NCBI RefSeq assembly: GCF_003018115.1
Contig: NZ_CP027457.1
Length of the DNA: 64,000 bases
Source of the DNA: Escherichia coli
GTDB taxonomy: Bacteria > Pseudomonadota > Gammaproteobacteria > Enterobacterales > Enterobacteriaceae
Reading direction: 5' to 3' (one strand)
Part shown: in pieces, positions 16,096 through 64,000 of the stretch
How positions within the stretch are numbered: the first letter of the stretch is position 1
How the letters are laid out: every line of letters starts with the position of its first letter
Notes under the pieces: generated by a model
What the model was told of the DNA's origin: nothing
Databases searched by the model: none
Seen by the model: only the letters and a program-made list of their open reading frames with translations
Program-made: the position numbers and the translations under genes

Positions 16096-16103
16096 AGGGC
16101 AAA

Positions 16104-39531: not shown

Positions 39532-39556
39532 AGATGATCGAATCCGAGGAGTGGTA

Positions 39557-42309: not shown

Positions 42310-42310
42310 T

Positions 42311-43162: not shown

Positions 43163-43171
43163 GGACGTTTT

Positions 43172-43552
43172 ATGCCGCACTTTATCGTGGAATGTACTGA
43201 AAATATTCGTGAAGAAGCCCGCTTACCTGAGCTGTTTGCCAGTGTTAACACTGCACTGGCGGCAACGGGGATTTTTCCGCTTGGGGGAATACGTAGCCGG
43301 GCGCACTGGATCGATACCTGGCAAATGGCTGATGGCAAGCACGATTACGCCTTTGTGCATATGACGCTAAAAATCGGCAGCGGACGCAGTCTGGAAAGCC
43401 GTCAGGAAGTAGGCGAAATGCTGTTTGATCTGATTAAAACGCACTTCGCCTCACTGATGGAGAGCCGTTACCTGGCGCTTTCATTTGAGATTGCAGAGCT
43501 GCACCCGACGTTGAATTTCAAACAGAACAACGTACACGCGTTGTTTAAATAA
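43172..43552 (+). CDS. hpaF: 5-carboxymethyl-2-hydroxymuconate isomerase HpaF (126 aa)
   Basis: ORF track 126 aa, starts MPHFIVECT. Confidence 0.9.
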
Positions 43553-43619
43553 ATTTGCACCAGCTTCCAGGCCGGATGATAAGGCGCAGCCGCATCCGGC
43601 AATGCCACAGGATATCGCT

Positions 43620-44423: not shown

Positions 44424-44433
44424 GGAGAGAACG

Positions 44434-45222: not shown

Positions 45223-45350
45223 TGCCGGATGCGCTGCGCTTATCCGGCCTACACTCGCACCAAATCGTAGGCCTGATAAGGCGTTACGCCGCATCAGGCA
45301 AAAAGCCGTACCAAATCGCGGACCGGATAAGGCGTTTACGCCGCATCCGC
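45223..45350. repeat. REP cluster between hpaI and hpaX
   Basis: three GCCGGATGCG...CTTATCCGGCCTAC-type palindromic units. Confidence 0.8.
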
Positions 45351-45396
45351 CATAAACCTTGTCGTACCCTACAAAAATCCCATTAGAGGAAGAAAA

Positions 45397-46773
45397 ATGA
45401 GCGACACCTCACCTGCCATACCGGAGAGTATCGATCCGGCGAATCAGCATAAAGCGCTGACTGCCGGACAACAGGCGGTTATTAAGAAGTTGTTTCGCCG
45501 CCTGATCGTCTTTCTGTTCGTGCTGTTTATCTTCTCGTTCCTTGATCGCATCAACATCGGCTTTGCCGGACTCACGATGGGACGCGACCTCGGTCTGAGC
45601 GCCACCATGTTTGGCCTCGCCACCACCCTGTTCTACGCCGCTTATGTCATCTTCGGCATTCCCAGCAACATTATGCTGAGTATTGTCGGTGCGCGACGCT
45701 GGATCGCCACCATCATGGTACTTTGGGGCATCGCCTCTACTGCCACCATGTTTGCCACTGGCCCCACCAGCTTGTACGTACTGCGTATACTGGTTGGCAT
45801 TACCGAAGCCGGCTTTCTGCCCGGTATTCTGCTCTATTTAACCTTCTGGTTTCCGGCCTACTTCCGCGCCCGTGCCAACGCCTTGTTTATGGTGGCAATG
45901 CCGGTAACGACAGCGTTGGGATCGATCGTTTCCGGCTACATTTTGTCGCTGGATGGCGTAATGGCATTAAAAGGCTGGCAGTGGCTGTTTTTGCTGGAAG
46001 GCTTCCCGTCGGTATTACTCGGCGTCATGGTGTGGTTCTGGCTTGATGACTCACCGGACAAAGCTAAGTGGCTGACGAAAGAAGACAAAAAATGCCTGCA
46101 AGAGATGATGGATAACGATCGTCTGACGCTGGTTCAGCCAGAGGGAGCCATCAGCCACCATGCCATGCAACAACGCAGCATGTGGCGGGAGATCTTCACT
46201 CCGGTGGTGATGATGTATACCCTGGCGTATTTCTGCCTGACCAACACACTTAGTGCGATCAGCATCTGGACACCGCAGATCCTGCAAAGCTTTAATCAGG
46301 GCAGCAGTAATATCACCATCGGCCTGCTGGCCGCCGTACCGCAGATTTGTACCATTCTCGGGATGATCTACTGGAGCCGTCACTCAGATCGCCGCCAGGA
46401 ACGAAGGCATCACACCGCCCTTCCTTATTTGTTCGCTGCCGCTGGTTGGTTACTGGCTTCGGCAACTGATCACAACATGATCCAGATGCTGGGGATCATT
46501 ATGGCTTCGACCGGATCATTCAGCGCAATGGCGATTTTCTGGACAACACCGGATCAGTCCATCAGCCTGCGGGCACGAGCGATCGGTATTGCGGTGATCA
46601 ACGCCACTGGCAACATTGGTTCAGCATTAAGTCCGTTTATGATCGGCTGGTTGAAAGATCTGACCGGCAGCTTTAACAGTGGATTGTGGTTTGTTGCCGC
46701 GCTGCTGGTGATTGGTGCAGGGATTATCTGGGCAATTCCAATGCAGTCCTCCCGTCCGCGAGCGACCCCGTAA
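45397..46773 (+). CDS. hpaX: MFS 4-hydroxyphenylacetate transporter HpaX (458 aa)
   Basis: ORF track 458 aa; 12-TM MFS pattern. Confidence 0.92.
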   Translation: MSDTSPAIPESIDPANQHKALTAGQQAVIKKLFRRLIVFLFVLFIFSFLDRINIGFAGLTMGRDLGLSATMFGLATTLFYAAYVIFGIPSNIMLSIVGARRWIATIMVLWGIASTATMFATGPTSLYVLRILVGITEAGFLPGILLYLTFWFPAYFRARANALFMVAMPVTTALGSIVSGYILSLDGVMALKGWQWLFLLEGFPSVLLGVMVWFWLDDSPDKAKWLTKEDKKCLQEMMDNDRLTLVQPEGAISHHAMQQRSMWREIFTPVVMMYTLAYFCLTNTLSAISIWTPQILQSFNQGSSNITIGLLAAVPQICTILGMIYWSRHSDRRQERRHHTALPYLFAAAGWLLASATDHNMIQMLGIIMASTGSFSAMAIFWTTPDQSISLRARAIGIAVINATGNIGSALSPFMIGWLKDLTGSFNSGLWFVAALLVIGAGIIWAIPMQSSRPRATP

Positions 46774-46782
46774 GGAACGACG

Positions 46783-47673
46783 ATGTGTGACCGTCAGATT
46801 GCCAATATTGATATCAGCAAAGAGTACGATGAAAGCCTGGGCACGGACGATGTGCATTATCAGTCGTTCGCCCGCATGGCGGCATTTTTTGGCCGCCATA
46901 TGCTGCCACATCGCCACGAACAGTACTTTCAGATGCATTTCCTCAATAGCGGACAGATTGAGCTACAGCTTGACGATCATCGCTACTCGGTGGAAGCGCC
47001 CCTGTTTGTCCTGACGCCGCCGTCAGTACCTCATGCGTTTATTACGGAGTCTGACGCCGACGGTCATGTGTTGACGGTACGGGAAGATCTGATCTGGCCC
47101 CTGCTGGAAGTTCTTTATCCAGGCACTCGGGAAACCTTCGGCCTGCCGGGGATTTGCCTGTCACTGGCAGATAAACCCGACGAACTGGCGGCGCTGGAAC
47201 ACTATTGGCAACTGATAGAGCGGGAATCGGTGGAACAACTGCCTGGACGGGAACACACCCTGACGTTACTGGCACAGGCAGTGTTCACCCTACTGCTGCG
47301 TAACGCAAAACTCGACGATCATGCCGCCAGCGGAATGCGCGGAGAATTAAAACTGTTCCAGCGTTTTCATATGCTGATTGAAAGCCATTTTCATCAGCAC
47401 TGGACAGTACCAGATTACGCTAACGAACTGCATATCACCGAATCACGCCTCACGGACATCTGCCGCCGCTTTGCCAACCGTCCGCCAAAACGGTTGATTT
47501 TCGACAGGCAGCTGCGAGAAGCCAAACGGCTGCTGCTGTTTTCTGATAACGCCGTGAACAATATTGCCTGGCAACTCGGTTTTAAGGATCCGGCTTATTT
47601 TGCGCGCTTTTTTAATCGCTTAGTCGGTTGCTCGCCCAGTGCTTATCGCGCCAAAAAAGTACCTGTGACGTGA
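46783..47673 (+). CDS. hpaA: AraC/XylS-family activator HpaA of hpaBC (296 aa)
   Basis: ORF track; cupin-like N-terminal domain, C-terminal AraC HTH. Confidence 0.9.
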   Translation: MCDRQIANIDISKEYDESLGTDDVHYQSFARMAAFFGRHMLPHRHEQYFQMHFLNSGQIELQLDDHRYSVEAPLFVLTPPSVPHAFITESDADGHVLTVREDLIWPLLEVLYPGTRETFGLPGICLSLADKPDELAALEHYWQLIERESVEQLPGREHTLTLLAQAVFTLLLRNAKLDDHAASGMRGELKLFQRFHMLIESHFHQHWTVPDYANELHITESRLTDICRRFANRPPKRLIFDRQLREAKRLLLFSDNAVNNIAWQLGFKDPAYFARFFNRLVGCSPSAYRAKKVPVT

Positions 47674-47923
47674 AAATCCCTTAGCCTTAACGGGAAACCA
47701 GGCATCACCTGCTATTCCCCTTTCTCCGCCTGGAGCAAGGGGATTTAGTAACGTTAAAAATCGCTAAAAGCGACCTCGATCACAAAACCGTACCCGACCT
47801 GAAAAGTACCAGCCATTGTCCCAAAAGTCTCTTCCCGTAATCGCCCCTGCAAGCTTCAATTGAATAACAAAAACAACACACAAAATTAACAATCGTATTC
47901 CGATTAATACTGTAGAGGTCGAC

Positions 47924-49486
47924 ATGAAACCAGAAGATTTCCGCGCCAGTACCCAACGTCCGTTCACCGGGGAAGAGTATCTGAAAAGCCTGCAGGATGG
48001 TCGCGAGATCTATATCTACGGCGAGAGAGTGAAAGACGTCACCACTCATCCGGCATTTCGTAATGCGGCAGCGTCTGTTGCCCAACTGTACGACGCGCTA
48101 CACAAACCGGAGATGCAGGACTCTCTGTGTTGGAACACCGACACCGGCAGCGGCGGCTATACCCATAAATTCTTCCGCGTGGCGAAAAGTGCCGACGACC
48201 TGCGCCAGCAACGCGATGCCATCGCTGAGTGGTCACGCCTGAGCTATGGCTGGATGGGCCGTACCCCAGACTACAAAGCTGCTTTCGGTTGCGCACTGGG
48301 CGCGAATCCGGGCTTTTACGGTCAGTTCGAGCAGAACGCCCGTAACTGGTATACCCGTATTCAGGAAACTGGCCTCTACTTTAACCACGCGATTGTTAAC
48401 CCACCGATCGATCGTCATTTGCCGACCGATAAAGTGAAAGACGTTTACATCAAGCTGGAAAAAGAGACTGACGCCGGGATTATCGTCAGCGGTGCGAAAG
48501 TGGTTGCCACCAACTCGGCGCTGACTCACTACAACATGATTGGTTTCGGCTCGGCACAAGTGATGGGCGAAAACCCGGACTTCGCACTGATGTTCGTTGC
48601 GCCAATGGATGCCGATGGCGTGAAATTAATCTCCCGCGCCTCTTATGAGATGGTCGCGGGTGCTACCGGCTCGCCGTACGACTACCCGCTCTCCAGCCGC
48701 TTCGATGAGAACGATGCGATCCTGGTGATGGATAACGTACTGATCCCTTGGGAAAACGTGCTGATCTACCGCGATTTCGATCGCTGCCGTCGCTGGACGA
48801 TGGAAGGCGGTTTTGCCCGTATGTATCCGCTGCAAGCCTGTGTGCGCCTGGCAGTGAAACTCGACTTCATCACGGCACTGCTGAAAAAATCACTCGAATG
48901 TACCGGCACCCTGGAGTTCCGTGGTGTGCAGGCCGATCTCGGTGAAGTGGTGGCGTGGCGCAACACCTTCTGGGCATTGAGTGACTCGATGTGTTCAGAA
49001 GCGACGCCGTGGGTCAACGGGGCTTATTTACCGGATCATGCTGCACTGCAAACCTATCGCGTACTGGCACCAATGGCCTACGCGAAGATCAAAAACATTA
49101 TCGAACGCAACGTTACCAGTGGCCTGATCTATCTCCCTTCCAGTGCCCGTGACCTGAACAATCCGCAGATCGACCAGTATCTGGCGAAGTATGTGCGCGG
49201 TTCGAACGGTATGGATCACGTCCAGCGCATCAAGATCCTCAAACTGATGTGGGATGCCATTGGCAGCGAATTTGGTGGTCGTCACGAGCTGTATGAAATC
49301 AACTACTCCGGTAGCCAGGATGAGATTCGCCTGCAATGTCTGCGCCAGGCACAAAGCTCCGGCAATATGGACAAGATGATGGCGATGGTTGATCGCTGCC
49401 TGTCGGAATACGACCAGAACGGCTGGACTGTGCCGCACCTGCACAACAACGACGATATCAACATGCTGGATAAGCTGCTGAAATAA
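47924..49486 (+). CDS. hpaB: 4-hydroxyphenylacetate 3-monooxygenase, oxygenase component HpaB (520 aa)
   Basis: ORF track 520 aa. Confidence 0.94.
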   Translation: MKPEDFRASTQRPFTGEEYLKSLQDGREIYIYGERVKDVTTHPAFRNAAASVAQLYDALHKPEMQDSLCWNTDTGSGGYTHKFFRVAKSADDLRQQRDAIAEWSRLSYGWMGRTPDYKAAFGCALGANPGFYGQFEQNARNWYTRIQETGLYFNHAIVNPPIDRHLPTDKVKDVYIKLEKETDAGIIVSGAKVVATNSALTHYNMIGFGSAQVMGENPDFALMFVAPMDADGVKLISRASYEMVAGATGSPYDYPLSSRFDENDAILVMDNVLIPWENVLIYRDFDRCRRWTMEGGFARMYPLQACVRLAVKLDFITALLKKSLECTGTLEFRGVQADLGEVVAWRNTFWALSDSMCSEATPWVNGAYLPDHAALQTYRVLAPMAYAKIKNIIERNVTSGLIYLPSSARDLNNPQIDQYLAKYVRGSNGMDHVQRIKILKLMWDAIGSEFGGRHELYEINYSGSQDEIRLQCLRQAQSSGNMDKMMAMVDRCLSEYDQNGWTVPHLHNNDDINMLDKLLK

Positions 49487-49503
49487 CGCAGCAGGAGGTT
49501 AAG

Positions 49504-50016
49504 ATGCAATTAGATGAACAACGCCTGCGCTTTCGTGACGCGATGGCCAGCCTGTCGGCAGCGGTAAATATTATCACCACCGAGGGCGACGCCGGACAAT
49601 GCGGGATTACGGCAACGGCCGTCTGCTCGGTCACGGATACCCCTCCGTCGCTGATGGTGTGCATTAACGCCAACAGTGCGATGAACCCGGTTTTTCAGGG
49701 CAACGGCAAGTTGTGCGTCAACGTCCTCAACCATGAGCAGGAACTGATGGCGCGCCACTTCGCGGGCATGACGGGCATGGCGATGGAAGAGCGTTTTAGC
49801 CTCTCGTGCTGGCAAAAAGGTCCGCTGGCGCAGCCGGTGCTAAAAGGTTCGCTGGCCAGTCTTGAAGGTGAGATCCGCGATGTGCAGGCGATTGGCACAC
49901 ATCTGGTGTATCTGGTGGAGATTAAAAACATCATCCTCAGTGCAGAAGGTCACGGACTTATTTACTTTAAACGCCGTTTCCATCCGGTGATGCTGGAAAT
50001 GGAAGCTGCGATTTAA
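49504..50016 (+). CDS. hpaC: 4-hydroxyphenylacetate 3-monooxygenase, flavin reductase component HpaC (170 aa)
   Basis: ORF track 170 aa; 18 bp after hpaB. Confidence 0.93.
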   Translation: MQLDEQRLRFRDAMASLSAAVNIITTEGDAGQCGITATAVCSVTDTPPSLMVCINANSAMNPVFQGNGKLCVNVLNHEQELMARHFAGMTGMAMEERFSLSCWQKGPLAQPVLKGSLASLEGEIRDVQAIGTHLVYLVEIKNIILSAEGHGLIYFKRRFHPVMLEMEAAI

Positions 50017-53824: not shown

Positions 53825-54739
53825 TCACTCAAAATAGTCCATATCCAGTTTCGGCACCTTCAACAAACGTGAAGAAACCCCTACTTCGTTTTCGATCATT
53901 AAGTGCACCAGGCGTTCCCCATCAACCAACACCATACCCTCGACGGATTGAGCAAAGTCACGCGCCTGAGACGTAAATCCAGAAGTGGTAATAAACACCC
54001 CACGTTTCGCCTTTTGCCCAGCCAGTGCGCCGTAAAATGCCTGTAATTCTGGCCTGCCTACAGTGTTCTGCCAACGTTTTGCCTGAACATAAACTTTCTC
54101 CAGGCCAAGTTTATCAAGCGATATCACACCATCGATGCCACCATCTCCAGTACCGCCAACACGCTGCAAATCATCACGGTGGCCGCCATACCCCAGGCGA
54201 TGCAAAACATCCAGAACAATGACTTCAAAGCGCGAAGGAGAAACCTGCAATAAGTTTTCCAGAACCTCATCAGCCACCGCATCACTAAGCTCTTTTAGCG
54301 CCTGATCTAACCGATCGTCCGGGCTGCTCTTTGCAAGTTCTTCATGATCGGGAGAGTCGGCTTTCGGATCTAAATCGACGGCATCCGGCCGTGACTTAAG
54401 TTTGACATTCACAAAATCGAAGGCCAGATGGTTCGTCTCCTGCTCCGTCATTGGCTGGGGATGAGACGCAACCCAGTCAAAACCCGCAGGAGTCAGGCAC
54501 CATTTGCCACGCGACAAACTTTGCGACAACCCGGCACGTTTTAAACGGTCATGCGCCCAGCCTGCACGATTTTTATAAACAAGTTGTCCGCTGGTAATGA
54601 CTTTCGCTCGCTGGCTGTCATCCAGTCCTAATGCATCCGCGGCAGCCTCATGAACATCACGCGCGGCTGCACCTTCCGGTTTTGTCGCCAGATAACGCAG
54701 AACAGGTTCAATAAATTTGTCATAGGTAGGAACCGTCAT
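53825..54739 (-). CDS. mrr: Mrr, Type IV methylated-adenine/cytosine-dependent restriction endonuclease (304 aa)
   Basis: ORF track 304 aa, MTVPTYDKFIEPVLRYLATKPEGAAARDV. Confidence 0.93.
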   Translation of the reverse strand: MTVPTYDKFIEPVLRYLATKPEGAAARDVHEAAADALGLDDSQRAKVITSGQLVYKNRAGWAHDRLKRAGLSQSLSRGKWCLTPAGFDWVASHPQPMTEQETNHLAFDFVNVKLKSRPDAVDLDPKADSPDHEELAKSSPDDRLDQALKELSDAVADEVLENLLQVSPSRFEVIVLDVLHRLGYGGHRDDLQRVGGTGDGGIDGVISLDKLGLEKVYVQAKRWQNTVGRPELQAFYGALAGQKAKRGVFITTSGFTSQARDFAQSVEGMVLVDGERLVHLMIENEVGVSSRLLKVPKLDMDYFE

Positions 54740-54926
54740 AGTACATCCTTGCAGAATCAGGTAGATGTTTTTCGGCTACTATAACACTACCAAAATAGAC
54801 GAACACGTTAGAAATGAGTCAGTTGCTGTGACCGTGGTCATTGCCCGGAAAGGTACAGAAAGCTAAGATAAGGCGTTATGGGCCTTAAATATTTGGACAG
54901 GCCCACACAGCAATGGATTAATAACA

Positions 54927-57900
54927 ATGATGAATAAATCCAATTTTGAATTCCTGAAGGGCGTCAACGACTTTACCTATGCCATCGCCTGTGCGGCGGA
55001 AAATAACTACCCGGATGATCCCAACACGACGCTGATTAAAATGCGTATGTTTGGCGAAGCCACAGCGAAACATCTTGGTCTGTTACTCAACATCCCCCCT
55101 TGTGAGAATCAACACGATCTCCTGCGCGAACTCGGCAAAATCGCCTTCGTTGATGACAACATTCTCTCTGTATTCCACAAATTACGCCGCATTGGTAACC
55201 AGGCGGTGCACGAATATCATAACGATCTCGACGATGCCCAGATGTGCCTGCGACTCGGGTTTCGCCTGGCTGTCTGGTACTACCGTCTGGTCACTAAAGA
55301 TTATGACTTCCCGGTGCCGGTGTTTGTGTTGCCGGAACGTGGTGAAAACCTCTATCACCAGGAAGTGCTGACGCTAAAACAACAGCTTGAACAGCAGGTG
55401 CGAGAAAAAGCGCAGAGTCAGGCAGAAGTCGAAGCACAACAGCAGAAGCTGGTTGCCCTGAACGGCTATATCGCCATTCTGGAAGGCAAGCAGCAGGAAA
55501 CCGAAGCGCAAACCCAGGCTCGCCTTGCTGCACTGGAAGCACAGCTCGCCGAGAAGAACGCGGAACTAGCCAAGCAGACCGAACAGGAACGTAAGGCTTA
55601 CCACAAAGAAATTACCGATCAGGCCATCAAGCGTACACTCAATCTTAGCGAAGAAGAGAGCCGCTTCCTGATTGACGCGCAACTGCGTAAAGCAGGCTGG
55701 CAGGCCGATAGCAAAACCCTGCGCTTCTCCAAAGGCGCGCGCCCGGAACCCGGCGTCAATAAAGCCATTGCCGAATGGCCGACCGGGAAAGATGAAACGG
55801 GTAATCAGGGCTTTGCGGATTATGTGCTGTTTGTCGGTCTCAAACCCATCGCGGTGGTAGAAGCGAAACGTAAAAATATCGACGTTCCCGGCAAGCTCAA
55901 TGAGTCGTATCGCTACAGTAAATGTTTCGATAATGGCTTCCTGCGGGAAACCTTGCTTGAGCACTACTCACCGGATGAAGTGCATGAAGCGGTGCCGGAG
56001 TATGAAACCAGTTGGCAGGACACCAGCGGCCAACAACGGTTTAAAATCCCCTTCTGCTACTCGACCAACGGGCGCGAATACCGCGCAGCGATGAAGACTA
56101 AAAGTGGCATCTGGTATCGCGACGTGCGTGATACCCGCAATATGTCGAAAGCCTTACCCGAGTGGCATCGCCCGGAAGAGTTGCTGGAAATGCTCGGCAG
56201 CGAACCGCAAAAACAGAATCAGTGGTTTGCCGATAATCCCGGCATGAGCGAGCTGGGCCTGCGTTATTATCAGGAAGATGCCGTCCGCGCGGTTGAAAAG
56301 GCAATCGTCAAGGGTCAACAAGAGATCCTGCTGGCGATGGCGACCGGTACCGGTAAAACCCGCACCGCAATTGCCATGATGTTCCGCCTGATCCAGTCCC
56401 AGCGTTTTAAACGCATTCTCTTCCTTGTGGATCGCCGTTCTCTTGGCGAGCAGGCGCTGGGGGCGTTTGAAGATACGCGTATTAACGGCGACACTTTCAA
56501 CAGCATTTTCGACATTAAAGGGCTGACGGATAAATTCCCCGAAGACAGCACCAAAATTCACGTTGCCACCGTACAGTCGCTGGTGAAACGCACCCTGCAA
56601 TCGGATGAACCGATGCCGGTAGCCCGTTACGACTGTATCGTCGTCGATGAAGCGCATCGCGGCTATATTCTCGATAAAGAGCAGACCGAAGGCGAACTGC
56701 AGTTCCGCAGCCAACTGGATTACGTTTCTGCCTACCGTCGTATTCTCGATCACTTCGATGCGGTAAAAATTGCTCTCACCGCCACCCCGGCGCTGCATAC
56801 GGTGCAGATTTTCGGCGAGCCGGTTTACCGTTACACCTACCGTACCGCGGTTATCGACGGTTTTCTGATCGACCAGGATCCGCCGATTCAGATCACCACC
56901 CGCAACGCACAGGAAGGGGTTTATCTCTCCAAAGGCGAGCAGGTTGAGCGCATCAGCCCGCAGGGGGAAGTGATCAACGACACCCTGGAAGACGATCAGG
57001 ATTTTGAGGTCGCCGACTTTAACCGTGGCCTGGTGATCCCGGCGTTTAACCGCGCCGTCTGTAACGAACTCACCAACTACCTTGACCCGACCGGGTTACA
57101 AAAAACGCTGGTCTTCTGCGTCACCAATGCCCATGCCGATATGGTGGTGGAAGAGTTGCGTACCGCGTTCAAGAAAAAGTATCCGCAACTGGAGCACGAC
57201 GCGATCATCAAGATCACCGGTGATGCCGATAAAGACGCGCGCAAAGTGCAGACCATGATCACCCGCTTCAATAAAGAGCGGCTGCCCAATATTGTCGTAA
57301 CCGTCGACCTGCTGACGACCGGCGTCGATATTCCGTCGATCTGTAATATCGTGTTCCTGCGTAAAGTACGCAGCCGTATTCTGTACGAGCAGATGAAAGG
57401 CCGCGCCACGCGCTTGTGCCCGGACGTGAATAAAACCAGCTTTAAGATTTTCGACTGCGTCGATATCTACAGCACGCTGGAGAGCGTCGATACCATGCGT
57501 CCGGTGGTGGTGCGCCCGAAGGTGGAACTGCAAACGCTGGTCAACGAAATTACCGATTCGGAAACCTATAAAATCACCGAAGCGGATGGCCGTAGCTTTG
57601 CCGAGCACAGCCATGAACAACTGGTGGCGAAGCTCCAGCGCATCATCGGCCTGGCCACGTTTAACCGTGACCGCAGCGAAACGATAGATAAACAGGTGCG
57701 TCGTCTGGATGAGCTATGCCAGGACGCGGCGGGCGTGAACTTTAACGGCTTCGCCTCGCGCCTGCGGGAAAAAGGGCCGCACTGGAGCGCCGAAGTCTTT
57801 AACAAACTGCCTGGCTTTATCGCCCGTCTGGAAAAGCTGAAAACCGACATCAACAACCTGAATGATGCGCCGATCTTCCTCGATATCGACGATGAAGTGG

Positions 57901-58439
57901 TGAGTGTAAAATCGCTGTACGGTGATTACGACACGCCGCAGGATTTCCTCGAAGCCTTTGACTCGCTGGTGCAACGTTCCCCGAACGCGCAACCAGCATT
58001 GCAGGCGGTGATTAATCGCCCGCGCGATCTCACCCGTAAAGGGCTGGTCGAGCTACAGGAGTGGTTTGACCGCCAGCACTTTGAGGAATCTTCCCTGCGC
58101 AAAGCGTGGAAAGAGACGCGCAATGAAGATATCGCCGCCCGGCTGATTGGACATATTCGCCGCGCTGCGGTGGGCGATGCGCTGAAACCGTTTGAGGAAC
58201 GTGTCGATCACGCGCTGACGCGCATTAAGGGCGAAAACGACTGGAGCAGCGAGCAATTAAGCTGGCTCGATCGTTTAGCGCAGGCGCTGAAAGAGAAAGT
58301 GGTGCTCGACGACGATGTCTTCAAAACCGGCAACTTCCACCGTCGCGGCGGGAAGGCGATGCTGCAAAGAACCTTTGACGATAATCTCGACAGCCTGCTC
58401 GATAAATTCAGCGATTATATCTGGGACGAGCTGGCCTGA
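54927..58439 (+). CDS. hsdR: Type I restriction enzyme R subunit HsdR (1170 aa)
   Basis: ORF track 1170 aa; helicase motif I ATGTGKT and DEAH box VVDEAHRG. Confidence 0.96.
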   Translation: MMNKSNFEFLKGVNDFTYAIACAAENNYPDDPNTTLIKMRMFGEATAKHLGLLLNIPPCENQHDLLRELGKIAFVDDNILSVFHKLRRIGNQAVHEYHNDLDDAQMCLRLGFRLAVWYYRLVTKDYDFPVPVFVLPERGENLYHQEVLTLKQQLEQQVREKAQSQAEVEAQQQKLVALNGYIAILEGKQQETEAQTQARLAALEAQLAEKNAELAKQTEQERKAYHKEITDQAIKRTLNLSEEESRFLIDAQLRKAGWQADSKTLRFSKGARPEPGVNKAIAEWPTGKDETGNQGFADYVLFVGLKPIAVVEAKRKNIDVPGKLNESYRYSKCFDNGFLRETLLEHYSPDEVHEAVPEYETSWQDTSGQQRFKIPFCYSTNGREYRAAMKTKSGIWYRDVRDTRNMSKALPEWHRPEELLEMLGSEPQKQNQWFADNPGMSELGLRYYQEDAVRAVEKAIVKGQQEILLAMATGTGKTRTAIAMMFRLIQSQRFKRILFLVDRRSLGEQALGAFEDTRINGDTFNSIFDIKGLTDKFPEDSTKIHVATVQSLVKRTLQSDEPMPVARYDCIVVDEAHRGYILDKEQTEGELQFRSQLDYVSAYRRILDHFDAVKIALTATPALHTVQIFGEPVYRYTYRTAVIDGFLIDQDPPIQITTRNAQEGVYLSKGEQVERISPQGEVINDTLEDDQDFEVADFNRGLVIPAFNRAVCNELTNYLDPTGLQKTLVFCVTNAHADMVVEELRTAFKKKYPQLEHDAIIKITGDADKDARKVQTMITRFNKERLPNIVVTVDLLTTGVDIPSICNIVFLRKVRSRILYEQMKGRATRLCPDVNKTSFKIFDCVDIYSTLESVDTMRPVVVRPKVELQTLVNEITDSETYKITEADGRSFAEHSHEQLVAKLQRIIGLATFNRDRSETIDKQVRRLDELCQDAAGVNFNGFASRLREKGPHWSAEVFNKLPGFIARLEKLKTDINNLNDAPIFLDIDDEVVSVKSLYGDYDTPQDFLEAFDSLVQRSPNAQPALQAVINRPRDLTRKGLVELQEWFDRQHFEESSLRKAWKETRNEDIAARLIGHIRRAAVGDALKPFEERVDHALTRIKGENDWSSEQLSWLDRLAQALKEKVVLDDDVFKTGNFHRRGGKAMLQRTFDDNLDSLLDKFSDYIWDELA

Positions 58440-58515
58440 CACGGTATCATTCCCGGCAATTTCTTCTTCTGCGGCCCAATAAATTTGGGCCGCTGCTTAA
58501 TTTACGGAACACCCA

Positions 58516-60105
58516 ATGAACAATAACGATCTGGTCGCGAAGCTGTGGAAGCTGTGCGACAACCTGCGCGATGGCGGCGTTTCCTATCAAAACTACGTCA
58601 ATGAACTCGCCTCGCTGCTGTTTTTGAAAATGTGTAAAGAGACCGGGCAGGAAGCGGAATACCTGCCGGAAGGCTACCGCTGGGATGACCTGAAATCCCG
58701 CATCGGCCAGGATCAATTGCAGTTCTACCGTAACCTGCTGGTACATCTGGGCGCCGACAATCAAAAGCTGGTGCAGGCGGTGTTCCAGAACGTCAACACC
58801 ACCATTACCCAGCCAAAACAGTTGACCGAACTGGTCACAAATATGGATTCGCTGGACTGGTATAACGGTGCGCACGGTAAGTCGCGCGATGACTTCGGCG
58901 ATATGTACGAAGGGCTGTTGCAGAAGAACGCCAACGAAACCAAGTCTGGCGCGGGCCAGTACTTCACCCCGCGTCCGCTGATTAAAACCATTATTCATCT
59001 GCTGAAACCGCAGCCGCGTGAAGTGGTGCAGGACCCGGCAGCAGGTACGGCGGGCTTTTTGATTGAAGCCGACCGCTACGTTAAGTCGCAGACCAATGAT
59101 CTGGACGACCTTGATGGCGATACGCAGGATTTCCAGATCCACCGCGCGTTTATCGGCCTCGAACTGGTGCCCGGCACCCGTCGTCTGGCGCTGATGAACT
59201 GCCTGCTGCACGATATTGAAGGCAACCTCGACCACGGCGGCGCAATCCGTCTGGGCAACACTCTGGGTAGCGACGGCGAAAACCTGCCGAAGGCGCATAT
59301 TGTCGCCACTAACCCGCCGTTTGGCAGCGCCGCAGGCACCAACATTACCCGCACCTTTGTTCACCCGACCAGCAATAAACAGTTGTGCTTTATGCAGCAT
59401 ATTATCGAAACGCTGCACCCCGGCGGTCGTGCGGCGGTGGTGGTGCCGGATAACGTGCTGTTTGAAGGCGGCAAAGGCACCGACATTCGTCGTGACCTGA
59501 TGGATAAGTGTCATCTGCACACTATTCTGCGTCTGCCGACCGGTATTTTTTACGCGCAGGGCGTGAAAACCAACGTGCTGTTCTTTACCAAAGGCACGGT
59601 GGCGAACCCGAATCAGGATAAGAACTGCACCGATGATGTGTGGGTGTACGACCTGCGTACCAATATGCCGAGCTTCGGCAAGCGCACGCCGTTTACTGAC
59701 GAACATCTGCAGCCGTTTGAGCGGGTGTATGGCGAAGATCCCCACGGCTTAAGCCCGCGCACTGAAGGCGACTGGGAATTCGACGCAGAAAAAAGTGAAA
59801 TTGCCGACAGCGAAGAGAACAAAAACACCGACCAGCATCTGGCTACCAGCCGCTGGCGCAAGTTCAGCCGCGAGTGGATCCGCACCGCGAAATCCGATTC
59901 GCTGGATATCTCCTGGCTGAAAGATAAAGACAGCATTGACGCCGACAACCTGCCGGAGCCGGATGTATTAGCGGCAGAAGCGATGGGCGAGCTGGTACAG
60001 GCGCTGGGCGAACTGGATGCGTTGATGCGTGAACTGGGGGCGAGCGATGAGGCGGATGCACAGCGTCAGTTGCTGGAAGAAGCGTTTGGTGGGGTGAAGG
60101 AATGA
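58516..60105 (+). CDS. hsdM: Type I restriction-modification M subunit HsdM, N6-adenine methyltransferase (529 aa)
   Basis: ORF track 529 aa; motif IV NPPFG and SAM-binding region. Confidence 0.96.
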   Translation: MNNNDLVAKLWKLCDNLRDGGVSYQNYVNELASLLFLKMCKETGQEAEYLPEGYRWDDLKSRIGQDQLQFYRNLLVHLGADNQKLVQAVFQNVNTTITQPKQLTELVTNMDSLDWYNGAHGKSRDDFGDMYEGLLQKNANETKSGAGQYFTPRPLIKTIIHLLKPQPREVVQDPAAGTAGFLIEADRYVKSQTNDLDDLDGDTQDFQIHRAFIGLELVPGTRRLALMNCLLHDIEGNLDHGGAIRLGNTLGSDGENLPKAHIVATNPPFGSAAGTNITRTFVHPTSNKQLCFMQHIIETLHPGGRAAVVVPDNVLFEGGKGTDIRRDLMDKCHLHTILRLPTGIFYAQGVKTNVLFFTKGTVANPNQDKNCTDDVWVYDLRTNMPSFGKRTPFTDEHLQPFERVYGEDPHGLSPRTEGDWEFDAEKSEIADSEENKNTDQHLATSRWRKFSREWIRTAKSDSLDISWLKDKDSIDADNLPEPDVLAAEAMGELVQALGELDALMRELGASDEADAQRQLLEEAFGGVKE

Positions 60106-61430
60106 GTGCGGGGAAATTGCCAGAGGGGTGGGTTGAAACTCAATTAGAAAATATCGTTGATATTTTAGACTCAATGCGTGTCCCGGTTAATAATTCTGAG
60201 AGACAATCACGCATTGCAGGAAAAAAAGAAAATGAACTTTATCCCTATTTTGGTGCTACCGGTGAAGTCGGTAAAATTGATGATTATATTTTTGATGAAG
60301 AACTTGTTGCATTAGGTGAAGATGGTGTTCCTTTTTTTGATGGGCACAAAAATAAGGCTTATATGCTGTATGGTAAAACGTGGGTGAATAATCATGCTCA
60401 TGTAATAAGAGCTATCTCTGGACTAAGCCATAACAAGTATTTATGCCATTATCTTAACCAATTCGACTATCATGATTATGTAAACGGCGGGACCAGGCTT
60501 AAACTTACACAAGCGAATATGAGAAAACTACCTGTTAGTTTAGCGCCTCTCGCCGAACAAAAAATCATCGCAGAAAAACTCGATACGCTGCTGGCGCAGG
60601 TAGAGAGCACCAAAGCACGTCTTGAGCAAATCCCACAAATCCTGAAACGTTTTCGTCAGGCGGTGTTGGCTGCTGTTGTTAATGGAAAATTATCAAAGAA
60701 CACGAAGCAATGGGAAATATACTTATTAAAAAATCTTTGTACTAGCATTTCAGATGGCGATCATCAGGCTCCTCCAAAATCAGAAACAGGAGTGCCTTTC
60801 CTCGTAATCTCCGATGTTAATAAAGGGGTGATTGATTTTGATAATGTAACCAGATGGGTGCCTGAATCTTACTACCAATCGCTAAAAGAAATTAGAAAAC
60901 CATGCCAATATGATATTTTATATACAGTTACAGGTTCTTATGGAATACCTGTAATTGTTAACGACAATAAACCATTTTGTTTCCAGCGACATATTGCCAT
61001 CATCAAGCCAAACAGAAATTTAATTGATCATAGATTCTTAGCTTTCTATTTAGAATCACCACAAATTCTCAAACATGCAAGTGATGTTGCTACTGGGACC
61101 GCACAAAAAACAGTATCGCTGTCGAGTCTCCGAAATTTTGAGATCTCTGTTCCCCCTTTAAAAGAACAACACGAAATCGTTCGTCGCGTCGAGCAACTCT
61201 TCGCCTACGCCGACACTATTGAAAAACAGGTCAACAACGCCCTGGCCCGCGTCAACAACCTGACGCAATCCATTCTGGCAAAAGCGTTCCGTGGTGAACT
61301 CACCGCCCAGTGGCGGGCCGAAAACCCGGAATTGATCAGCGGAGAAAACAGCGCCGCCGCGTTGCTGGAGAAAATCAAAGCTGAACGCGCAGCCAGCGGG
61401 GGTAAAAAAGCCTCGCGTAAAAAATCCTGA
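60102..61430 (+). CDS. hsdS: Type I restriction-modification specificity subunit HsdS (442 aa), Type IA framework with non-EcoKI target-recognition domains
   Basis: ORF track; ATGA overlap with hsdM; conserved N-terminus MSAGKLPEGWV, central LAPLAEQKIIAEKLDTLLAQVESTKARLEQIPQILKRFRQAVL and C-terminal PPLKEQHEIVRRVEQLFAYADTIEKQVNNALARV blocks flank two AT-rich variable segments. Confidence 0.9.
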   Translation: MSAGKLPEGWVETQLENIVDILDSMRVPVNNSERQSRIAGKKENELYPYFGATGEVGKIDDYIFDEELVALGEDGVPFFDGHKNKAYMLYGKTWVNNHAHVIRAISGLSHNKYLCHYLNQFDYHDYVNGGTRLKLTQANMRKLPVSLAPLAEQKIIAEKLDTLLAQVESTKARLEQIPQILKRFRQAVLAAVVNGKLSKNTKQWEIYLLKNLCTSISDGDHQAPPKSETGVPFLVISDVNKGVIDFDNVTRWVPESYYQSLKEIRKPCQYDILYTVTGSYGIPVIVNDNKPFCFQRHIAIIKPNRNLIDHRFLAFYLESPQILKHASDVATGTAQKTVSLSSLRNFEISVPPLKEQHEIVRRVEQLFAYADTIEKQVNNALARVNNLTQSILAKAFRGELTAQWRAENPELISGENSAAALLEKIKAERAASGGKKASRKKS

Positions 61431-61562
61431 ACATTATTTTCTGGCGCACCTTTCCGGTGCGCTTTTAATTATTTCACGCCAATCATAATTCACGCAAATA
61501 TATTTAAATCACTCCAGAAATTGCCCATTTTATTCTATTTTTAGCTGGACTTTCCCTGTATT

Positions 61563-61582
61563 TACTGATGATATATCCAGGT
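61563..61582 (+). promoter_or_regulatory. LexA (SOS) box upstream of symE
   Basis: TACTGATGATATATCCAGGT: CTG-N10-CAG with AT-rich centre, about 75 bp upstream of the symE ATG. Confidence 0.65.
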
Positions 61583-61589
61583 ATTTAGC

Positions 61590-61670
61590 GCGGTGCGGAT
61601 GTGCGCCAACACACCCGCACCGCTCATCACAATCACTATTTATGGAGAATAGTAATCATGACTGACACGC
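61590..61670 (-). ncRNA. symR: SymR antisense sRNA overlapping the symE 5' UTR and start codon (boundaries approximate)
   Basis: position opposite the symE translation initiation region; 9-bp-stem hairpin GCGGTGCGG / CCGCACCGC at 61590-61623; minus-strand TAGAAT-like -10 at 61671-61676. Ends are inferred, not read directly. Confidence 0.3.
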
Positions 61671-61999
61671 ATTCTATTGCACAACCGTTCGAAGCAGAAG
61701 TCTCCCCGGCAAATAACCGTCAATTAACCGTGAGTTATGCGAGCCGCTACCCGGATTACAGCCGTATTCCCGCCATCACCCTGAAAGGTCAGTGGCTGGA
61801 AGCCGCCGGTTTTGCCACCGGCACGGCGGTAGATGTCAAAGTGATGGAAGACTGTATTGTCCTCACCGCCCAACCCGCCGCCGCCGAAGAGAGCGAACTG
61901 ATGCAGTCACTGCGCCAGGTGTGCAAACTGTCGGCGCGTAAACAAAAGCAGGTGCAGGAGTTCATTGGGATGATTGCGGGTAAACAGAAAGTCGCCTGA
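61658..61999 (+). CDS. symE: SymE, SOS-induced toxin-like protein (113 aa)
   Basis: ORF track; start at internal ATG giving [38 protein letters not shown] 10 bp upstream. Confidence 0.9.
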
Positions 62000-62007
62000 T
62001 ACATTGA

Positions 62008-62031
62008 CCCGGTAGCGCCAGTGCTACCGGG
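62008..62031. terminator. hairpin between convergent symE and the downstream nuclease gene, probable bidirectional terminator
   Basis: CCCGGTAGC-GCCAGT-GCTACCGGG followed by TATTATT. Confidence 0.5.
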
Positions 62032-62045
62032 TATTATTCGCCGCG

Positions 62046-64000
62046 TTATACCAACGCGCTCTCCATCTGTTTTTCAAATGCCTGACGAATTAATCCCATA
62101 ATATAAGGAAGTTGTGCGAGGTCGCTGAAACCAATTTCCACATCGCCATTGCCCCATCGCCCAACATTTGTCACATCTTTGGCAATACCTTTCGGATCGA
62201 CCAGTTCATGAAACTGCATATTAAGCGACAATCGCAGTCGGCTTTTTTGCGGCACAACATCAACAAAATTCGTTTCAGCTTTAAACGCAATATAGAGCTT
62301 CAATACTTCCTGCGTGATCCCTGCGTCCAGGCGCATAACTTCATCGCTAAGATGATCGAATAACACCCGGCTATGCGAACCATCAGCAAGAAAAGGATAA
62401 TCACTCAGGCTGTAACTGGTTTTGTTTTCCGGCTGCCCCCGATAAACAGCTAAAACCTCTTCAGGAAGAGAAGGCGCTTGCCAGACCTGAACCGCGAGAT
62501 CGGCCAGACGATCGGCTCGGGCGTGAATGGCGGCTTCATCCCATTTTTCGCACTGTCCAAGACCGATATTCAAATAAAGCGGGCTATGCTTAAAGCCGTC
62601 TTCAATATCGCGTTTTTCCGCGAAAGGTCTGTCACTGTAGCGGGAGTTATAGCGCGTTAAAGTGAGATTCCCCAACGTATGTAACAGTTCTTTATGCACA
62701 CGCTGCCAGTCGCTTCCCAGCTCTTCGCGCCATTTAGCCGACAAATTTTCGTTCTGCGGCATAATATGTTCAATCGTAAACTCTTCCACGCGCTCTCTGC
62801 GTTTATCGTTTTCCAGTCGTCGTAACCAGTAGCTGCGACTACGGAAGTTATAGAGATCGCGAACTTTTAATTCCCGTTTAAATTCATCATCGTTGGGGAA
62901 ACGACGATATGAAGGTAGATTCAAAAAATGTACCTGAATACTTTCCAGATAATTTTCTTTATTAATAACTTTATAAAAAGTGGCAAATGTCTTGTTCAAA
63001 GAATTTGTCGGAATTGCACATACTGCACGGCGGAAAACATAAGATTCAATTAAACGAATTATGCTCAGGAAATCTTCGTGAGACAAATCGTCATTTTTAT
63101 AGTCATGATAAAGCGCCAGTAAGAAAGGATACGCCACATCAACCTTTAACTCGCGCAAATCCTGAAAAGCCGTAGCAAGCGATTTGTCACTTTCTTTTCC
63201 CAATGCCATTGCACAGTAATACTCCGCGTAGATGTGAATATCTTCAACCAGCCGATCTACGCCTTTTTCAGCAACACTCTGGCTGCGGGCATGGAGTTTA
63301 AATGCCTCATAGACTTCATCTGTCCGAGGGATCTCCCCCGTTTTTACCGTCAGATAATGACGCATAAAACTGTCAAAATATTCGCTGTAACCTTGCTGAC
63401 CAAAAGCGACTTCCATTGGACGCCAGTGATCTTCATACAACCGGGTTTGATGCTCTGGTTCGAGGCCCATCAGAATAAAATTGCGCACCAGATCGGCCTG
63501 ACTTAACGCCTTACCGGTGGAGTTCATACTTTCAAAAATCAGTTGCGGATTATCCTGACCACGATTAAGCGCCACATCGACAATTAATAACTTTGCTAAC
63601 CCACGACATAAGGGGATCAAGTCATCACCGAGTTTGGCAATTTGCTCATCAAAGAAAGTAAAGTTTTCCATTATTCGATGGGAATAGTTTTCTGGCATTG
63701 GTCTTTGTTTTATTAACGCCAGTAAACTGTCTTTATCAGTCTCGGTCAGCAGTAATTTAAAACCTTTCTCGCCGGACTCATAAGGATTGAGCAAATAATA
63801 ATTACGCAATTTCATTGCCGAAAAGCCATCAAAAACTTCGTCTTCGCCAAGATGGCGCGATAAAGCCTCAATCAGCAACATTGCGGTCGTCAGCCGCTGC
63901 TGACCATCAATGACCAGCAACGGAGAAATACCAGAAACCTGATACAATCCCTGCTCTATATAAACAACCGAACCGATAAAATGCGCTGATATATCGTCAC
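62046..64000 (-). CDS. DUF262/DUF1524 (GmrSD-family) nuclease, candidate Type IV modification-dependent restriction enzyme; N-terminus lies beyond the window end
   Basis: ORF track 633 aa from an internal TTG, but the frame stays open to position 64000 (...DDISAHFIGSVVYIEQGLYQVSGISPLLVIDGQQRLTT); DUF262 hallmarks DGQQRLTT and IFESMNSTGKALSQADLVRNF; C-terminal DUF1524 His-Me-finger region EHIMPQNENLS...LHTLGNLTLTRYN; visibly AT-rich. Confidence 0.8.
   Translation of the reverse strand, partial: DDISAHFIGSVVYIEQGLYQVSGISPLLVIDGQQRLTTAMLLIEALSRHLGEDEVFDGFSAMKLRNYYLLNPYESGEKGFKLLLTETDKDSLLALIKQRPMPENYSHRIMENFTFFDEQIAKLGDDLIPLCRGLAKLLIVDVALNRGQDNPQLIFESMNSTGKALSQADLVRNFILMGLEPEHQTRLYEDHWRPMEVAFGQQGYSEYFDSFMRHYLTVKTGEIPRTDEVYEAFKLHARSQSVAEKGVDRLVEDIHIYAEYYCAMALGKESDKSLATAFQDLRELKVDVAYPFLLALYHDYKNDDLSHEDFLSIIRLIESYVFRRAVCAIPTNSLNKTFATFYKVINKENYLESIQVHFLNLPSYRRFPNDDEFKRELKVRDLYNFRSRSYWLRRLENDKRRERVEEFTIEHIMPQNENLSAKWREELGSDWQRVHKELLHTLGNLTLTRYNSRYSDRPFAEKRDIEDGFKHSPLYLNIGLGQCEKWDEAAIHARADRLADLAVQVWQAPSLPEEVLAVYRGQPENKTSYSLSDYPFLADGSHSRVLFDHLSDEVMRLDAGITQEVLKLYIAFKAETNFVDVVPQKSRLRLSLNMQFHELVDPKGIAKDVTNVGRWGNGDVEIGFSDLAQLPYIMGLIRQAFEKQMESALV

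Follow-up and report, generated by a model that had tools for sequence, protein, structure and literature searches.

The end of the window (the whole stretch analysed, 64,000 nucleotides of Escherichia coli contig NZ_CP027457.1) almost certainly holds the last 650 of the 697 codons of an intact gene for a single-chain defence nuclease of the GmrSD family. We rest this on direct observations of gene integrity, domain content, motif conservation, purifying selection, cassette boundaries and defence-island context. That the intact gene also encodes a stand-alone, modification-dependent enzyme is, as a whole statement, probable. The gene itself is already known, with the same locus and family published, and the finding is correct but ordinary. 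The gene and its parts are as follows.

62046..64000, minus strand: GmrSD-family gene, codons 48-697 plus stop, of 697 in total (open frame; full ORF at locus L001; dN/dS)
63474..64000, minus strand: DUF262/GmrSD_N ParB-like NTPase domain, residues 9-222 (48-222 in the window; PF03235)
63894-63908, minus strand: DGQQR motif, D78-R82, the NTP-hydrolysis motif of the family (coordinates checked; alignment)
From 63536 downward, minus strand: FESMN(STGKALSQADLV) motif (coordinates checked)
62898..63473, minus strand: all-alpha-helical linker, residues 223-414 (AlphaFold model, pLDDT mostly 86-98, helices H228-H406)
62499..62897, minus strand: DUF1524/GmrSD_C His-Me-finger nuclease domain, residues 415-547 (PF07510)
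62646..62771, minus strand: span of the nuclease active-site motifs EHIMP and GNLTLTRYN (coordinates checked)
62757-62771, minus strand: EHIMP, E457-P461 (alignment)
62646-62672, minus strand: GNLTLTRYN, G490-N498 (alignment)
62070..62369, minus strand: DUF5655 domain, residues 591-690, alpha-beta5-alpha fold of YdhG/YjbR/frataxin type (Pfam; fold comparison)

Read on the minus strand, 62046-63998 translates into 650 sense codons followed by a stop (62046-62048); no stop interrupts the frame, which leaves through the window end. The first-pass annotation had described an ORF of at least 651 codons running off the window; the open end stands, and the count becomes 650 sense codons, the 651st being the stop. 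The first 47 codons, equivalent to positions 63999-64139, were read from a genome 99.98% identical to this one, in which the full ORF (L001, 15647-17740) has an ATG start and 697 intact codons. L001 is 100% identical to the window across 61400-64000, and the upstream part thus carries neither of the defects, a frameshift or a stop, that the earlier reading had named as grounds for calling a pseudogene. In the allele of the window an in-frame stop precedes the ATG, which leaves 697 aa as the one possible length. The suggestion that partner genes might lie past the window did not hold: beyond the 47 codons the near-identical genome has only the core genes yjiS and yjiR, and no partner gene lies upstream.

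A continuous frame of 697 codons is present in F8111-1SC3, 7/2, ES5, an NL isolate and UTI89, which makes five alleles with L001 included. RefSeq nevertheless suggests a decaying pseudogene: in every intact-allele record inspected, the intact ORF is split into a 387-aa fragment and a pseudogene labelled 'DUF262 ... missing C-terminus'. Decay has a real instance in the O157:H7 allele, in which G5 is shortened to G4 at nucleotide 801 and the frame ends in a stop at codon 294, and 7 of 25 sampled full-length matches span 2093 bp, the frameshifted length. Against decay as an account of the gene in the window stand the five continuous frames, the intactness of all catalytic motifs, a 90%-identity cluster of full-length 697-aa proteins with 3852 member sequences, a diverged 699-aa allele (BCE-1) annotated as a single CDS, and dN/dS of 0.04-0.10 overall. 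No region exceeds 0.27, and the constraint extends across the stretch that RefSeq leaves unannotated, which includes part of the linker (linker dN/dS 0.10-0.27). We conclude that the gene is kept under purifying selection and regard decay as very improbable. The frameshifted O157:H7 copy shows that the gene is dispensable in some lineages, and the RefSeq split probably copies this truly frameshifted allele. We also considered a two-gene GmrS/GmrD system, as the two RefSeq features might imply, and rejected it; both features are pieces of one frame. Because of the split, defence surveys that work from proteins will miss copies of, or model wrongly, the GmrSD type that ranks in published surveys as the commonest in E. 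coli.

Both domains proposed in the first-pass annotation were found at the expected ends of the chain. The profile check that it had suggested gave significant matches to GmrSD_N (PF03235, E 1.9e-19) and GmrSD_C (PF07510, E 1.4e-26) for the 650 in-window residues, and E-values of 4.1e-34 and 1.6e-26, respectively, for all 697; these matches are far beyond chance. The two domains lie on one chain, a single 697-codon ORF, joined by the linker, whose helices (228-406) are modeled with high pLDDT. In an alignment of 72 homologues (33-82% identity) the catalytic residues show little or no variation. The DUF262 domain contains IPIYQRTYSW, DGQQR and FESMN, with P21, Q24, R25, W29 and N206 invariant; within DGQQR, D78, Q80, Q81 and R82 are invariant and G79 is at least 90% conserved. 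The role of DGQQR has been demonstrated by experiment in HEC-06, TgvAB and DndI (bioRxiv 10.1101/2024.01.29.577857; PMC11411939; PMC11662687). In the nuclease domain P461 and N491 are invariant, E457, H458 and N498 are at least 90% conserved, and the AlphaFold model places a beta-beta-alpha element (E455-458 / E492-495 / H498-501) at these motifs. The E/H equivalents of EHIMP are needed in HEC-06 (E471A, H472A) and in BrxU (bioRxiv 10.1101/2024.01.29.577857). Thus GmrSD_N carries QR, DGQQR and FxxxN, and GmrSD_C carries (D/E)HxxP...N...H/N. The two-domain layout proposed earlier was right as to DUF262 and DUF1524 and incomplete as an architecture, having missed a third domain, DUF5655.

The gene forms a 2.2-kb cassette between symE and yjiS, and at 44.0% GC, against 52.3% for the window, it bears out the earlier description of the ORF as AT-rich. 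In K-12 MG1655 the interval from yjiS to symE instead holds 7.6 kb comprising yjiT, yjiV', mcrC and mcrB, as the first reading had it for mcrBC. Homology to K-12 stops at 61995 and resumes just past the yjiS stop codon. On the other side of symE lies the rest of the immigration control region (ICR).

53825..61430, no strand: remainder of the immigration control region in the window (gene calls; RefSeq of the near-identical genome)
53825-54739, minus strand: mrr
54927-58439, plus strand: hsdR
58516-60105, plus strand: hsdM
60102-61430, plus strand: hsdS
61658-61999, plus strand: symE, left edge of the variable cassette (RefSeq annotation of the near-identical genome)
62008..62031, no strand: perfect hairpin CCCGGTAGC-GCCAGT-GCTACCGGG in the gap between symE and the GmrSD gene (sequence; inside the cassette, beyond K-12 homology)

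As the first reading had it, symE adjoins the gene and is convergent with it, 46 bp separating the end of symE from the stop codon. The predicted fold of the hairpin in this gap extends the stem to 10 bp (-20.2 and -19.6 kcal/mol on the two strands); its putative role is that of a bidirectional terminator. A promoter/terminator consensus scan of the locus returned sites in no greater number than shuffled sequence did and missed this hairpin.

Several lines of evidence agree with the original placement of the protein in the GmrSD/BrxU/SspE group. Besides the Pfam matches, PADLOC assigned the in-window protein to Orf5 (PDLC02693, 4.8e-202), a label whose meaning was not found in the literature searched, and gave further matches to HEC-06 (up to 1e-54), mREase_IV (1.5e-22) and SspE; NCBIfam had no match at E <= 0.01. 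Searching solved structures with a profile recovered DndI (9JFL, 1.8e-39) and SspE (6JIV/7DRS, 6e-22), with BrxU (7P9K) undetected at the sequence level (E > 0.01). The AlphaFold model (pLDDT 90.4) has the overall fold of the group, and Foldseek against the PDB ranked DndI (9.3e-17) and SspE (1.5e-13) ahead of BrxU (3.2e-5, TM about 0.3); differences in domain arrangement hold the TM-scores against solved members down to 0.3-0.5. DndI and SspE, both phosphorothioate-sensing, are thus closer than BrxU and the closest among solved relatives.

This closeness raises the question of whether the target is DNA without a host mark, with the DUF262 domain sensing that mark (phosphorothioate, or possibly the m6A set by the neighboring Type I methyltransferase) on self DNA and thereby releasing or restraining the nuclease. 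DndI and SspE share the DUF262 NTPase and DUF1524 nickase/nuclease plan, and Y25, the Tyr of the phosphorothioate-sensing YQR of DndI (PMC11662687), corresponds to Y23 here; with Q24 and R25 invariant, however, the YQR Tyr belongs to a general DUF262 motif and is not a marker of phosphorothioate sensing. Both enzymes also depend on dnd or ssp phosphorothioate genes, have no DUF5655 and align by fold at only 15-18% identity. We found no sspABCD or dndBCDE (iscS) genes within 15 kb on each side in E. coli, within 8 kb in BCE-1 or within 7 kb at six non-E. coli loci, that is, within 7 kb at seven other loci. In frequency, too, the two differ: the gene is found in about 25% of complete E. coli genomes (1358 E. 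coli carriers), compared to about 2% of hotspot-37 loci for Dnd (PMC12707154 Table 3).

The neighborhoods bear on the same question. We hand-checked eight loci, a small but consistent sample. In Kiritimatiella, Salinivibrio and Halopseudomonas the homologue is embedded as X in hsdM-hsdS-X-hsdR operons, where the gene ends overlap; in Oceanimonas it follows hsdR, on a metagenome contig it follows brxL, and in Nitrincola it lies beside Mks-like genes. The location in defence islands is thus recurrent, with four of the six non-E. coli long-context loci lying within a Type I operon or at its end, one at BREX and one at Mks-like genes. In E. coli, hsdRMS and mrr adjoin the gene in both allele types. 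Translational coupling to Type I R-M genes would suit an enzyme that reads a host mark, but the neighbors vary (different Type I families and HsdS proteins, BREX or Mks, and an hsdS annotated as broken in ES5), and hence no constant self mark is available. A DndI-like enzyme without its mark is, moreover, toxic (PMC11662687), yet the gene is intact under purifying selection. We consider self-mark sensing unlikely.

The operon positions in other taxa have also to be weighed against a PrrC-like guard, in which the enzyme would be held inactive, perhaps via DUF5655, and set free once the Type I enzyme is knocked out by an anti-restriction protein of a phage. prrC is likewise described as embedded in a restriction locus (PMC12707154), and at a pI of about 5 the C-terminal domain is acidic, with fold neighbors that include protein-binding families (frataxin/CyaY, type III secretion chaperones) besides DNA binders. 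The E. coli gene, however, is convergent with the hsd operon rather than inside it, and elsewhere the gene sits beside BREX or Mks-like genes; close relatives have no DUF5655, or have DUF4268 or DUF4357 at that position; and HEC-06 and BrxU act independently of host systems, while TgvAB defence needs no HsdR restriction activity. A guard role is, in our estimate, marginally less probable even than self-mark sensing.

The acidity of the DUF5655 domain does not suggest simple DNA binding. The domain was placed by fold comparison alone, its profile reaching a best E of only 0.27 against PDB sequences; against a large protein database, and likewise AFDB50, the C-terminal profile returned almost only fragments of the same family and so gave no information on other architectures. 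PHROGs holds no family for the C-terminal domain and only unnamed families for the whole protein. Our search for DUF5655 literature returned one unrelated genome note, and the domain does not appear in the accessible text of PMC4437046 or in that of PMC12373910 and its supplements. By analogy, DUF5655 looks like an exchangeable accessory module. We postulate, tentatively and at long odds, though a shade less long than those of self-mark sensing, that it may set the response of the subfamily, either by recognizing a modification other than glucosyl-hmC or by tying the nuclease to the Type I R-M complex, whose genes are so frequently transcribed together with it. With DUF4268, DUF4357 or nothing at the same position in close relatives, this would be a swappable specificity or regulatory slot.

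The reading that we favor over self-mark sensing and a guard is Type IV restriction, and we hold it with rather less assurance than the combined statement above. By analogy with Eco94GmrSD, BrxU, HEC-06 and TgvAB, we infer nuclease and NTPase activity, modification dependence and the kind of substrate. The enzyme would work alone as a single chain: the DUF262 domain would bind and hydrolyze NTP, gating the DUF1524 nuclease, which would cut incoming phage DNA bearing a non-host base modification, e.g. hypermodified cytosine. Such an enzyme may cover phages that evade the neighboring Type I R-M system by modifying their DNA. In HEC-06, BrxU and TgvAB, phage defence depends on the DGQQR and H/N motifs. 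Several points weigh against the overall reading: the mark sensed by the nearest solved relatives, phosphorothioate, is the host's own and not foreign, BrxU is undetected by sequence, and identity to Eco94GmrSD is reported as only 24% for the homologue APECO1_2080 (PMC4437046); the acidity of DUF5655 and the frameshifted O157:H7 copy count against it as well.

Comparison with individual systems gives a similar picture. Eco94GmrSD / EcoCT596 GmrSD, the paradigm of the family, are prophage-borne Type IV enzymes with NTP-stimulated cutting of glc-5hmC/5hmC DNA, and they share the single chain of DUF262, helical linker and DUF1524 with DGQQR and EHxxP (PMC4437046, PMC4619093); the gene described here differs in its chromosomal ICR location and its extra DUF5655. 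HEC-06 (Payne et al. 2024, bioRxiv 10.1101/2024.01.29.577857) is likewise a stand-alone GmrSD-like protein embedded in other defence systems, with equivalents of DGQQR and EHI(C/M)P, and its PADLOC models cover residues 51-555 (4-508 in the window). The match is moderate, however, and Orf5 fits far better; the HEC-06 models stop where DUF5655 starts, and HEC-06 is found in Hma systems, whereas the family of the window gene is mainly found with Type I R-M. BrxU and TgvAB are Type IV GmrSD enzymes of BREX or Type I R-M loci that complement a system directed at unmodified DNA (PMC8565348, as cited in other papers; PMC11411939). One homologue of our gene shares the BREX setting of BrxU in following brxL, but resemblance to BrxU is recognizable only at the fold level. 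TgvAB requires two proteins, and we found no second, adjacent DUF262-only gene of the TgvAB or GmrS1-GmrSD2 type in E. coli or at the eight loci. McrBC of K-12 occupies the same chromosomal slot and is also a modification-dependent, NTP-driven restriction enzyme, although the proteins are unrelated (a two-subunit AAA+ GTPase with a PD-(D/E)xK nuclease) and the cassettes differ in size.

The locus was listed by He et al. 2015 as the ICR GmrSD homologue APECO1_2080 / UTI89_C5048 / c5421 (PMC4437046 section 17, Fig. 8). The UTI89 allele is 96.9% identical in DNA, is flanked by symE and by a short ORF in the place of yjiS, and is separated from the window allele by roughly a dozen residues. In B2-type alleles the frame stays open upstream, which yields the 733 aa given for APECO1_2080. 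GmrSD is reported at 12% of ICR loci (PMC12707154 Table 3). In Silas et al. 2025 (PMC12373910), CLS_001 heads the numbering of the 20 GmrSD clusters most common in enterobacteria, and Supplementary Dataset 6 lists RefSeq protein ids and fragments of this gene within it. A CLS_001 representative was reportedly synthesized and tested against T-even phages (PMC12373910); the supplementary legends of that paper do not state whether CLS_001 is among the five newly active systems. The locus tags UTI89_C5048, APECO1_2080, c5421 and others appear in no functional study besides PMC4437046.

The substrate is stated in no text that we examined, though about one quarter of complete E. coli genomes carry the gene. 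The carriers include UTI89, O104:H4 and, in frameshifted form, O157:H7, and the question of substrate bears on phage host range and phage therapy. DUF5655 is a domain without literature at an exchangeable position; if it does set the response of the subfamily, the commonest enterobacterial GmrSD type would obey a rule undescribed for GmrSD, BrxU, SspE and DndI.

Translation of the minus strand gave 650 sense codons and a stop codon at 62046-63998, with zero internal stops and a frame still open at the window edge, which confirms the long ORF that the first-pass annotation had described as running off the window end. The motifs quoted there are all present in the gene and map to the coordinates below; symE is convergent as described, its end lying 46 bp from the gene's stop codon, and the term "AT-rich" is apt (44.0% GC against 52.3% for the window).

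Features of the locus (window coordinates)
61658-61999, plus strand, symE, the convergent neighbour
62008-62031, between convergent symE and the GmrSD-family gene, perfect hairpin CCCGGTAGC GCCAGT GCTACCGGG, about -20 kcal/mol on either strand
62646-62672, minus strand, GNLTLTRYN motif
62757-62771, minus strand, EHIMP motif
63522-63536, minus strand, FESMN motif
63894-63908, minus strand, DGQQR motif
62046-63209 (15647-16810 in the F8111-1SC3 locus, L001), 387-aa RefSeq CDS
63534-64000 (17135-17740 in L001), RefSeq pseudogene

Three complete E. coli genomes were 100% identical to window 61400-64000, and strain F8111-1SC3 was 99.98% identical to the whole window (L001 coordinate = window coordinate - 46399). 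Extension past 64000, which the first-pass annotation had proposed, found the upstream part intact: the frame in L001 runs on through 47 more codons as far as an ATG, so that the protein has 697 residues. It is just as unbroken in UTI89, 7/2, ES5, and an environmental isolate from the Netherlands, whose alleles differ at 4 to about 12 amino acids. Pairwise dN/dS among intact alleles was 0.04-0.10, and it was at most 0.27 in each of four regions (DUF262, linker, DUF1524, and C-terminal domain). Because dN/dS is low both overall and region by region, we conclude that the gene is under purifying selection over its full length. The B2-type alleles (UTI89 and 7/2) have 36 extra open codons from an ATG 108 bases further upstream, and this open upstream frame accounts for the 733-aa annotation of APECO1_2080, the published homologue at this locus; the window's strain has a stop codon in that frame, and the family alignment favours the 697-aa start.

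RefSeq/PGAP divided the intact 697-codon ORF in two in 5 of the 5 intact alleles inspected. One piece is a CDS that begins at internal Met311 and encodes a 387-aa "GmrSD restriction endonuclease domain-containing protein"; the other, covering the N-terminal part, is a pseudogene labelled "DUF262 ... missing C-terminus", and some 90-110 codons between the two carry no annotation. Protein-based defence surveys will thus see fragments only. In O157:H7 strain 1130 (L007 2501-4593), a GGGGG run lacks one G at nucleotide 801 (codon 267), leading to a stop at codon 294; the gene is annotated as two CDSs, the second being the same 387-aa piece. Most likely, the split annotation in intact strains copies the O157:H7 gene model. 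Of the 25 full-length matches in a spread sample, 7 were 2093 bp long like the frameshifted allele, the frameshift itself having been checked in one. The RefSeq annotation and the O157:H7 frameshift could be read as signs of a decaying pseudogene, but the intact frame, low dN/dS, and intact motifs make this reading highly improbable.

Pfam found three domains in the full protein:

residues 9-222, GmrSD_N / DUF262, E 4.1e-34
residues 415-547, GmrSD_C / DUF1524, E 1.6e-26
residues 591-690, DUF5655, E 1.8e-12

The first-pass annotation had named the first two and overlooked the third. Its assignment to the GmrSD/BrxU/SspE type agrees with PADLOC, whose models matched as "Orf5" (PDLC02693, 4.8e-202), HEC-06 (1e-54), mREase_IV (1.5e-22), and SspE (7e-12); the best of these, PDLC02693, stops where DUF5655 starts, and the candidate family PDC-S18 matches the C-terminal domain. 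A literature search for a system named by the label "Orf5" found none, and an NCBIfam search with the protein returned no model. In an alignment of 72 homologues (33-82% identity), P21, Q24, R25, W29, D78, Q80, Q81, R82, N206, P461, and N491 were invariant and E457, H458, and N498 were at least 90% conserved. These are NTPase and His-Me-finger residues, essential by mutagenesis in HEC-06, TgvAB, DndI, and BrxU (bioRxiv 10.1101/2024.01.29.577857; PMC11411939; PMC11662687). The AlphaFold model built from this alignment was confident (pLDDT 90.4, pTM 0.80), and a Foldseek search against the PDB gave DndI (9JFL, 9.3e-17), SspE (7DRS, 1.5e-13), and BrxU (7P9K, 3.2e-5), with no further significant match. 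The sequence profile ranked relatives likewise, DndI (1.8e-39) before SspE (6e-22), and did not detect BrxU.

The C-terminal domain had the following fold neighbours:

YdhG-like / DUF1801 protein, value 10.0
DUF419, YjbR, value 9.0
COG5646, value 6.8
CyaY / frataxin, value about 6.5
T4 MotA DNA-binding domain, value 6.3-6.4

It is acidic (median pI 5.3 in 34 family members), and in AFDB50 DUF5655 is overwhelmingly C-terminal in DUF262 proteins of ~690-700 residues from many bacterial phyla and archaea. A literature search on DUF5655 function gave nothing on the domain. Close relatives whose match ends around residue 556-570 have no tail, a DUF4268 tail (6 of 33), a DUF4357 tail (1), or one without a Pfam match; DUF4268 and DUF4357 are accessory domains of GmrSD homologues according to Machnicka et al. 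(PMC4619093). Since the tails of close relatives vary in this way, we regard the C-terminal position as an exchangeable slot.

The order in K-12 MG1655 is yjiS, yjiT, yjiV', mcrC, mcrB, symE, hsdS, hsdM, hsdR, mrr, so that mcrC-mcrB does occupy this position, as the first-pass annotation had stated. Homology to K-12 stops at window 61995 (the symE end) and restarts right after the yjiS stop codon; by these breaks, a 2,236-bp cassette replaces 7,583 bp of K-12. The hairpin at 62008-62031 lies inside the cassette, is absent from K-12, and was missed by a promoter/terminator consensus scan of the locus; it is a possible bidirectional terminator. The L001 annotation holds no partner gene upstream, the neighbours being the core genes yjiS (DUF1127) and yjiR. 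Downstream of yjiR, past the window (L001 19832-20766), is a gene for an Rpn-family recombination-promoting nuclease; several strains have it annotated as frameshifted, UTI89 and 7/2 as intact. In ES5, the annotation breaks hsdS (L003 1622-3031) into two pseudogene pieces, and the adjoining GmrSD-family ORF is intact. Elsewhere in the window, tsr and btsT are separated by a complete catabolic cluster for 4-hydroxyphenylacetate (hpa; about 38839-50016); the two genes adjoin in K-12, a known strain difference, separate from the GmrSD-family finding. A tandem array of 100-bp units (15602-16086; 4.8 copies, 97% match), each including the REP/BIME-like sequence GCCGGATGCGGCGTGAACGCCTTATCCGGCCTAC, lies between yjjV and yjjW.

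The observation is real and correctly interpreted, and both gene and position are already in the literature. He et al. 2015 described exactly this locus: the 733-aa GmrSD homologue APECO1_2080 (= UTI89_C5048, c5421, ECP_4674, and others; PMC4437046 section 17, Fig. 8) lies within the immigration control region (ICR), adjoining hsdSMR and mrr, where mcrBC otherwise stands, and is 24% identical to Eco94GmrSD (PMC4437046). According to a 2025 review in EcoSal Plus, 12% of 9,040 ICR loci carry GmrSD (PMC12707154 Table 3). In Silas et al. 2025 (PMC12373910), which clustered enterobacterial GmrSD proteins, CLS_001 stands first among the 20 most common clusters and contains all four RefSeq proteins of the locus (WP_001304006, WP_001304007, WP_072002093, and WP_001531297); the authors also state that each of the 15 systems had a representative synthesised and challenged with T-even phages, and that five new ones proved active. 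Our literature search found no further functional study of the locus gene.

Of 5426 complete E. coli genomes, 1480 matched the gene alone and 1358 (25%) covered at least 80% of it, nearly all of them 95-99% identical; UTI89, O104:H4, and O157:H7 are among the carriers. At 70-82% identity, full-length homologues extend to Citrobacter, Halomonas, Oceanimonas, Salinivibrio, and even Kiritimatiella; at 52-65%, homologues are carried by cyanobacterial, alphaproteobacterial, and actinobacterial plasmids, and one Anaerosphaera phage record also contains such a homologue. A library of 50%-identity representatives held 2,760 relatives at E <= 1e-30. The gene is widely transferred. A second allele type, in strain BCE-1 (L008 7996-10095; 74% DNA identity, 699 aa, three domains, annotated as a single CDS), is likewise in the ICR, where Fic and BrnA genes flank it and a different Type I R-M operon is oriented divergently to it.

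Outside E. coli, the homologue (X) has these contexts:

Kiritimatiella, hsdM-hsdS-X-hsdR, gene ends overlap
Salinivibrio, hsdM-hsdS-X-hsdR, gene ends overlap
Halopseudomonas, X between hsdS (with AAA_13, DUF4411, and Abi_C genes) and hsdR
Oceanimonas, X overlaps the hsdR end
Metagenome scaffold, X after brxL
Nitrincola, X adjoins Mks-like genes

These six agree with published accounts in which GmrSD-like genes are often embedded in loci of the Type I R-M, Hma, and BREX kinds and there take care of modified phages. The first four (71-73% identity; 7001-9103 in L010, L014, and L015, 7001-9100 in L011) lie within Type I R-M operons or at their ends, and the overlap of their start and stop codons with hsdS or hsdR suggests translational coupling in these taxa. 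Such coupling, together with DndI and SspE being the closest solved relatives, would fit an enzyme that senses a self mark as those proteins do; we consider this unlikely, as dnd or ssp genes were found at none of nine loci, the gene is highly prevalent, and its Type I partners change. Operon position in other taxa could also point to a PrrC-like guard of the Type I system, a role made quite unlikely by the convergent orientation in E. coli and by the independent action of characterised relatives.

The gene is intact, conserved, and selected, and carries full NTPase and nuclease motifs; it is located in a defence island, and no partner gene accompanies it. The analogy with Eco94GmrSD, BrxU, HEC-06, and TgvAB suggests that its product would be a stand-alone enzyme in which NTP binding and hydrolysis by DUF262 would license the His-Me-finger nuclease on foreign-modified DNA, and it would complement the adjacent Type I system.
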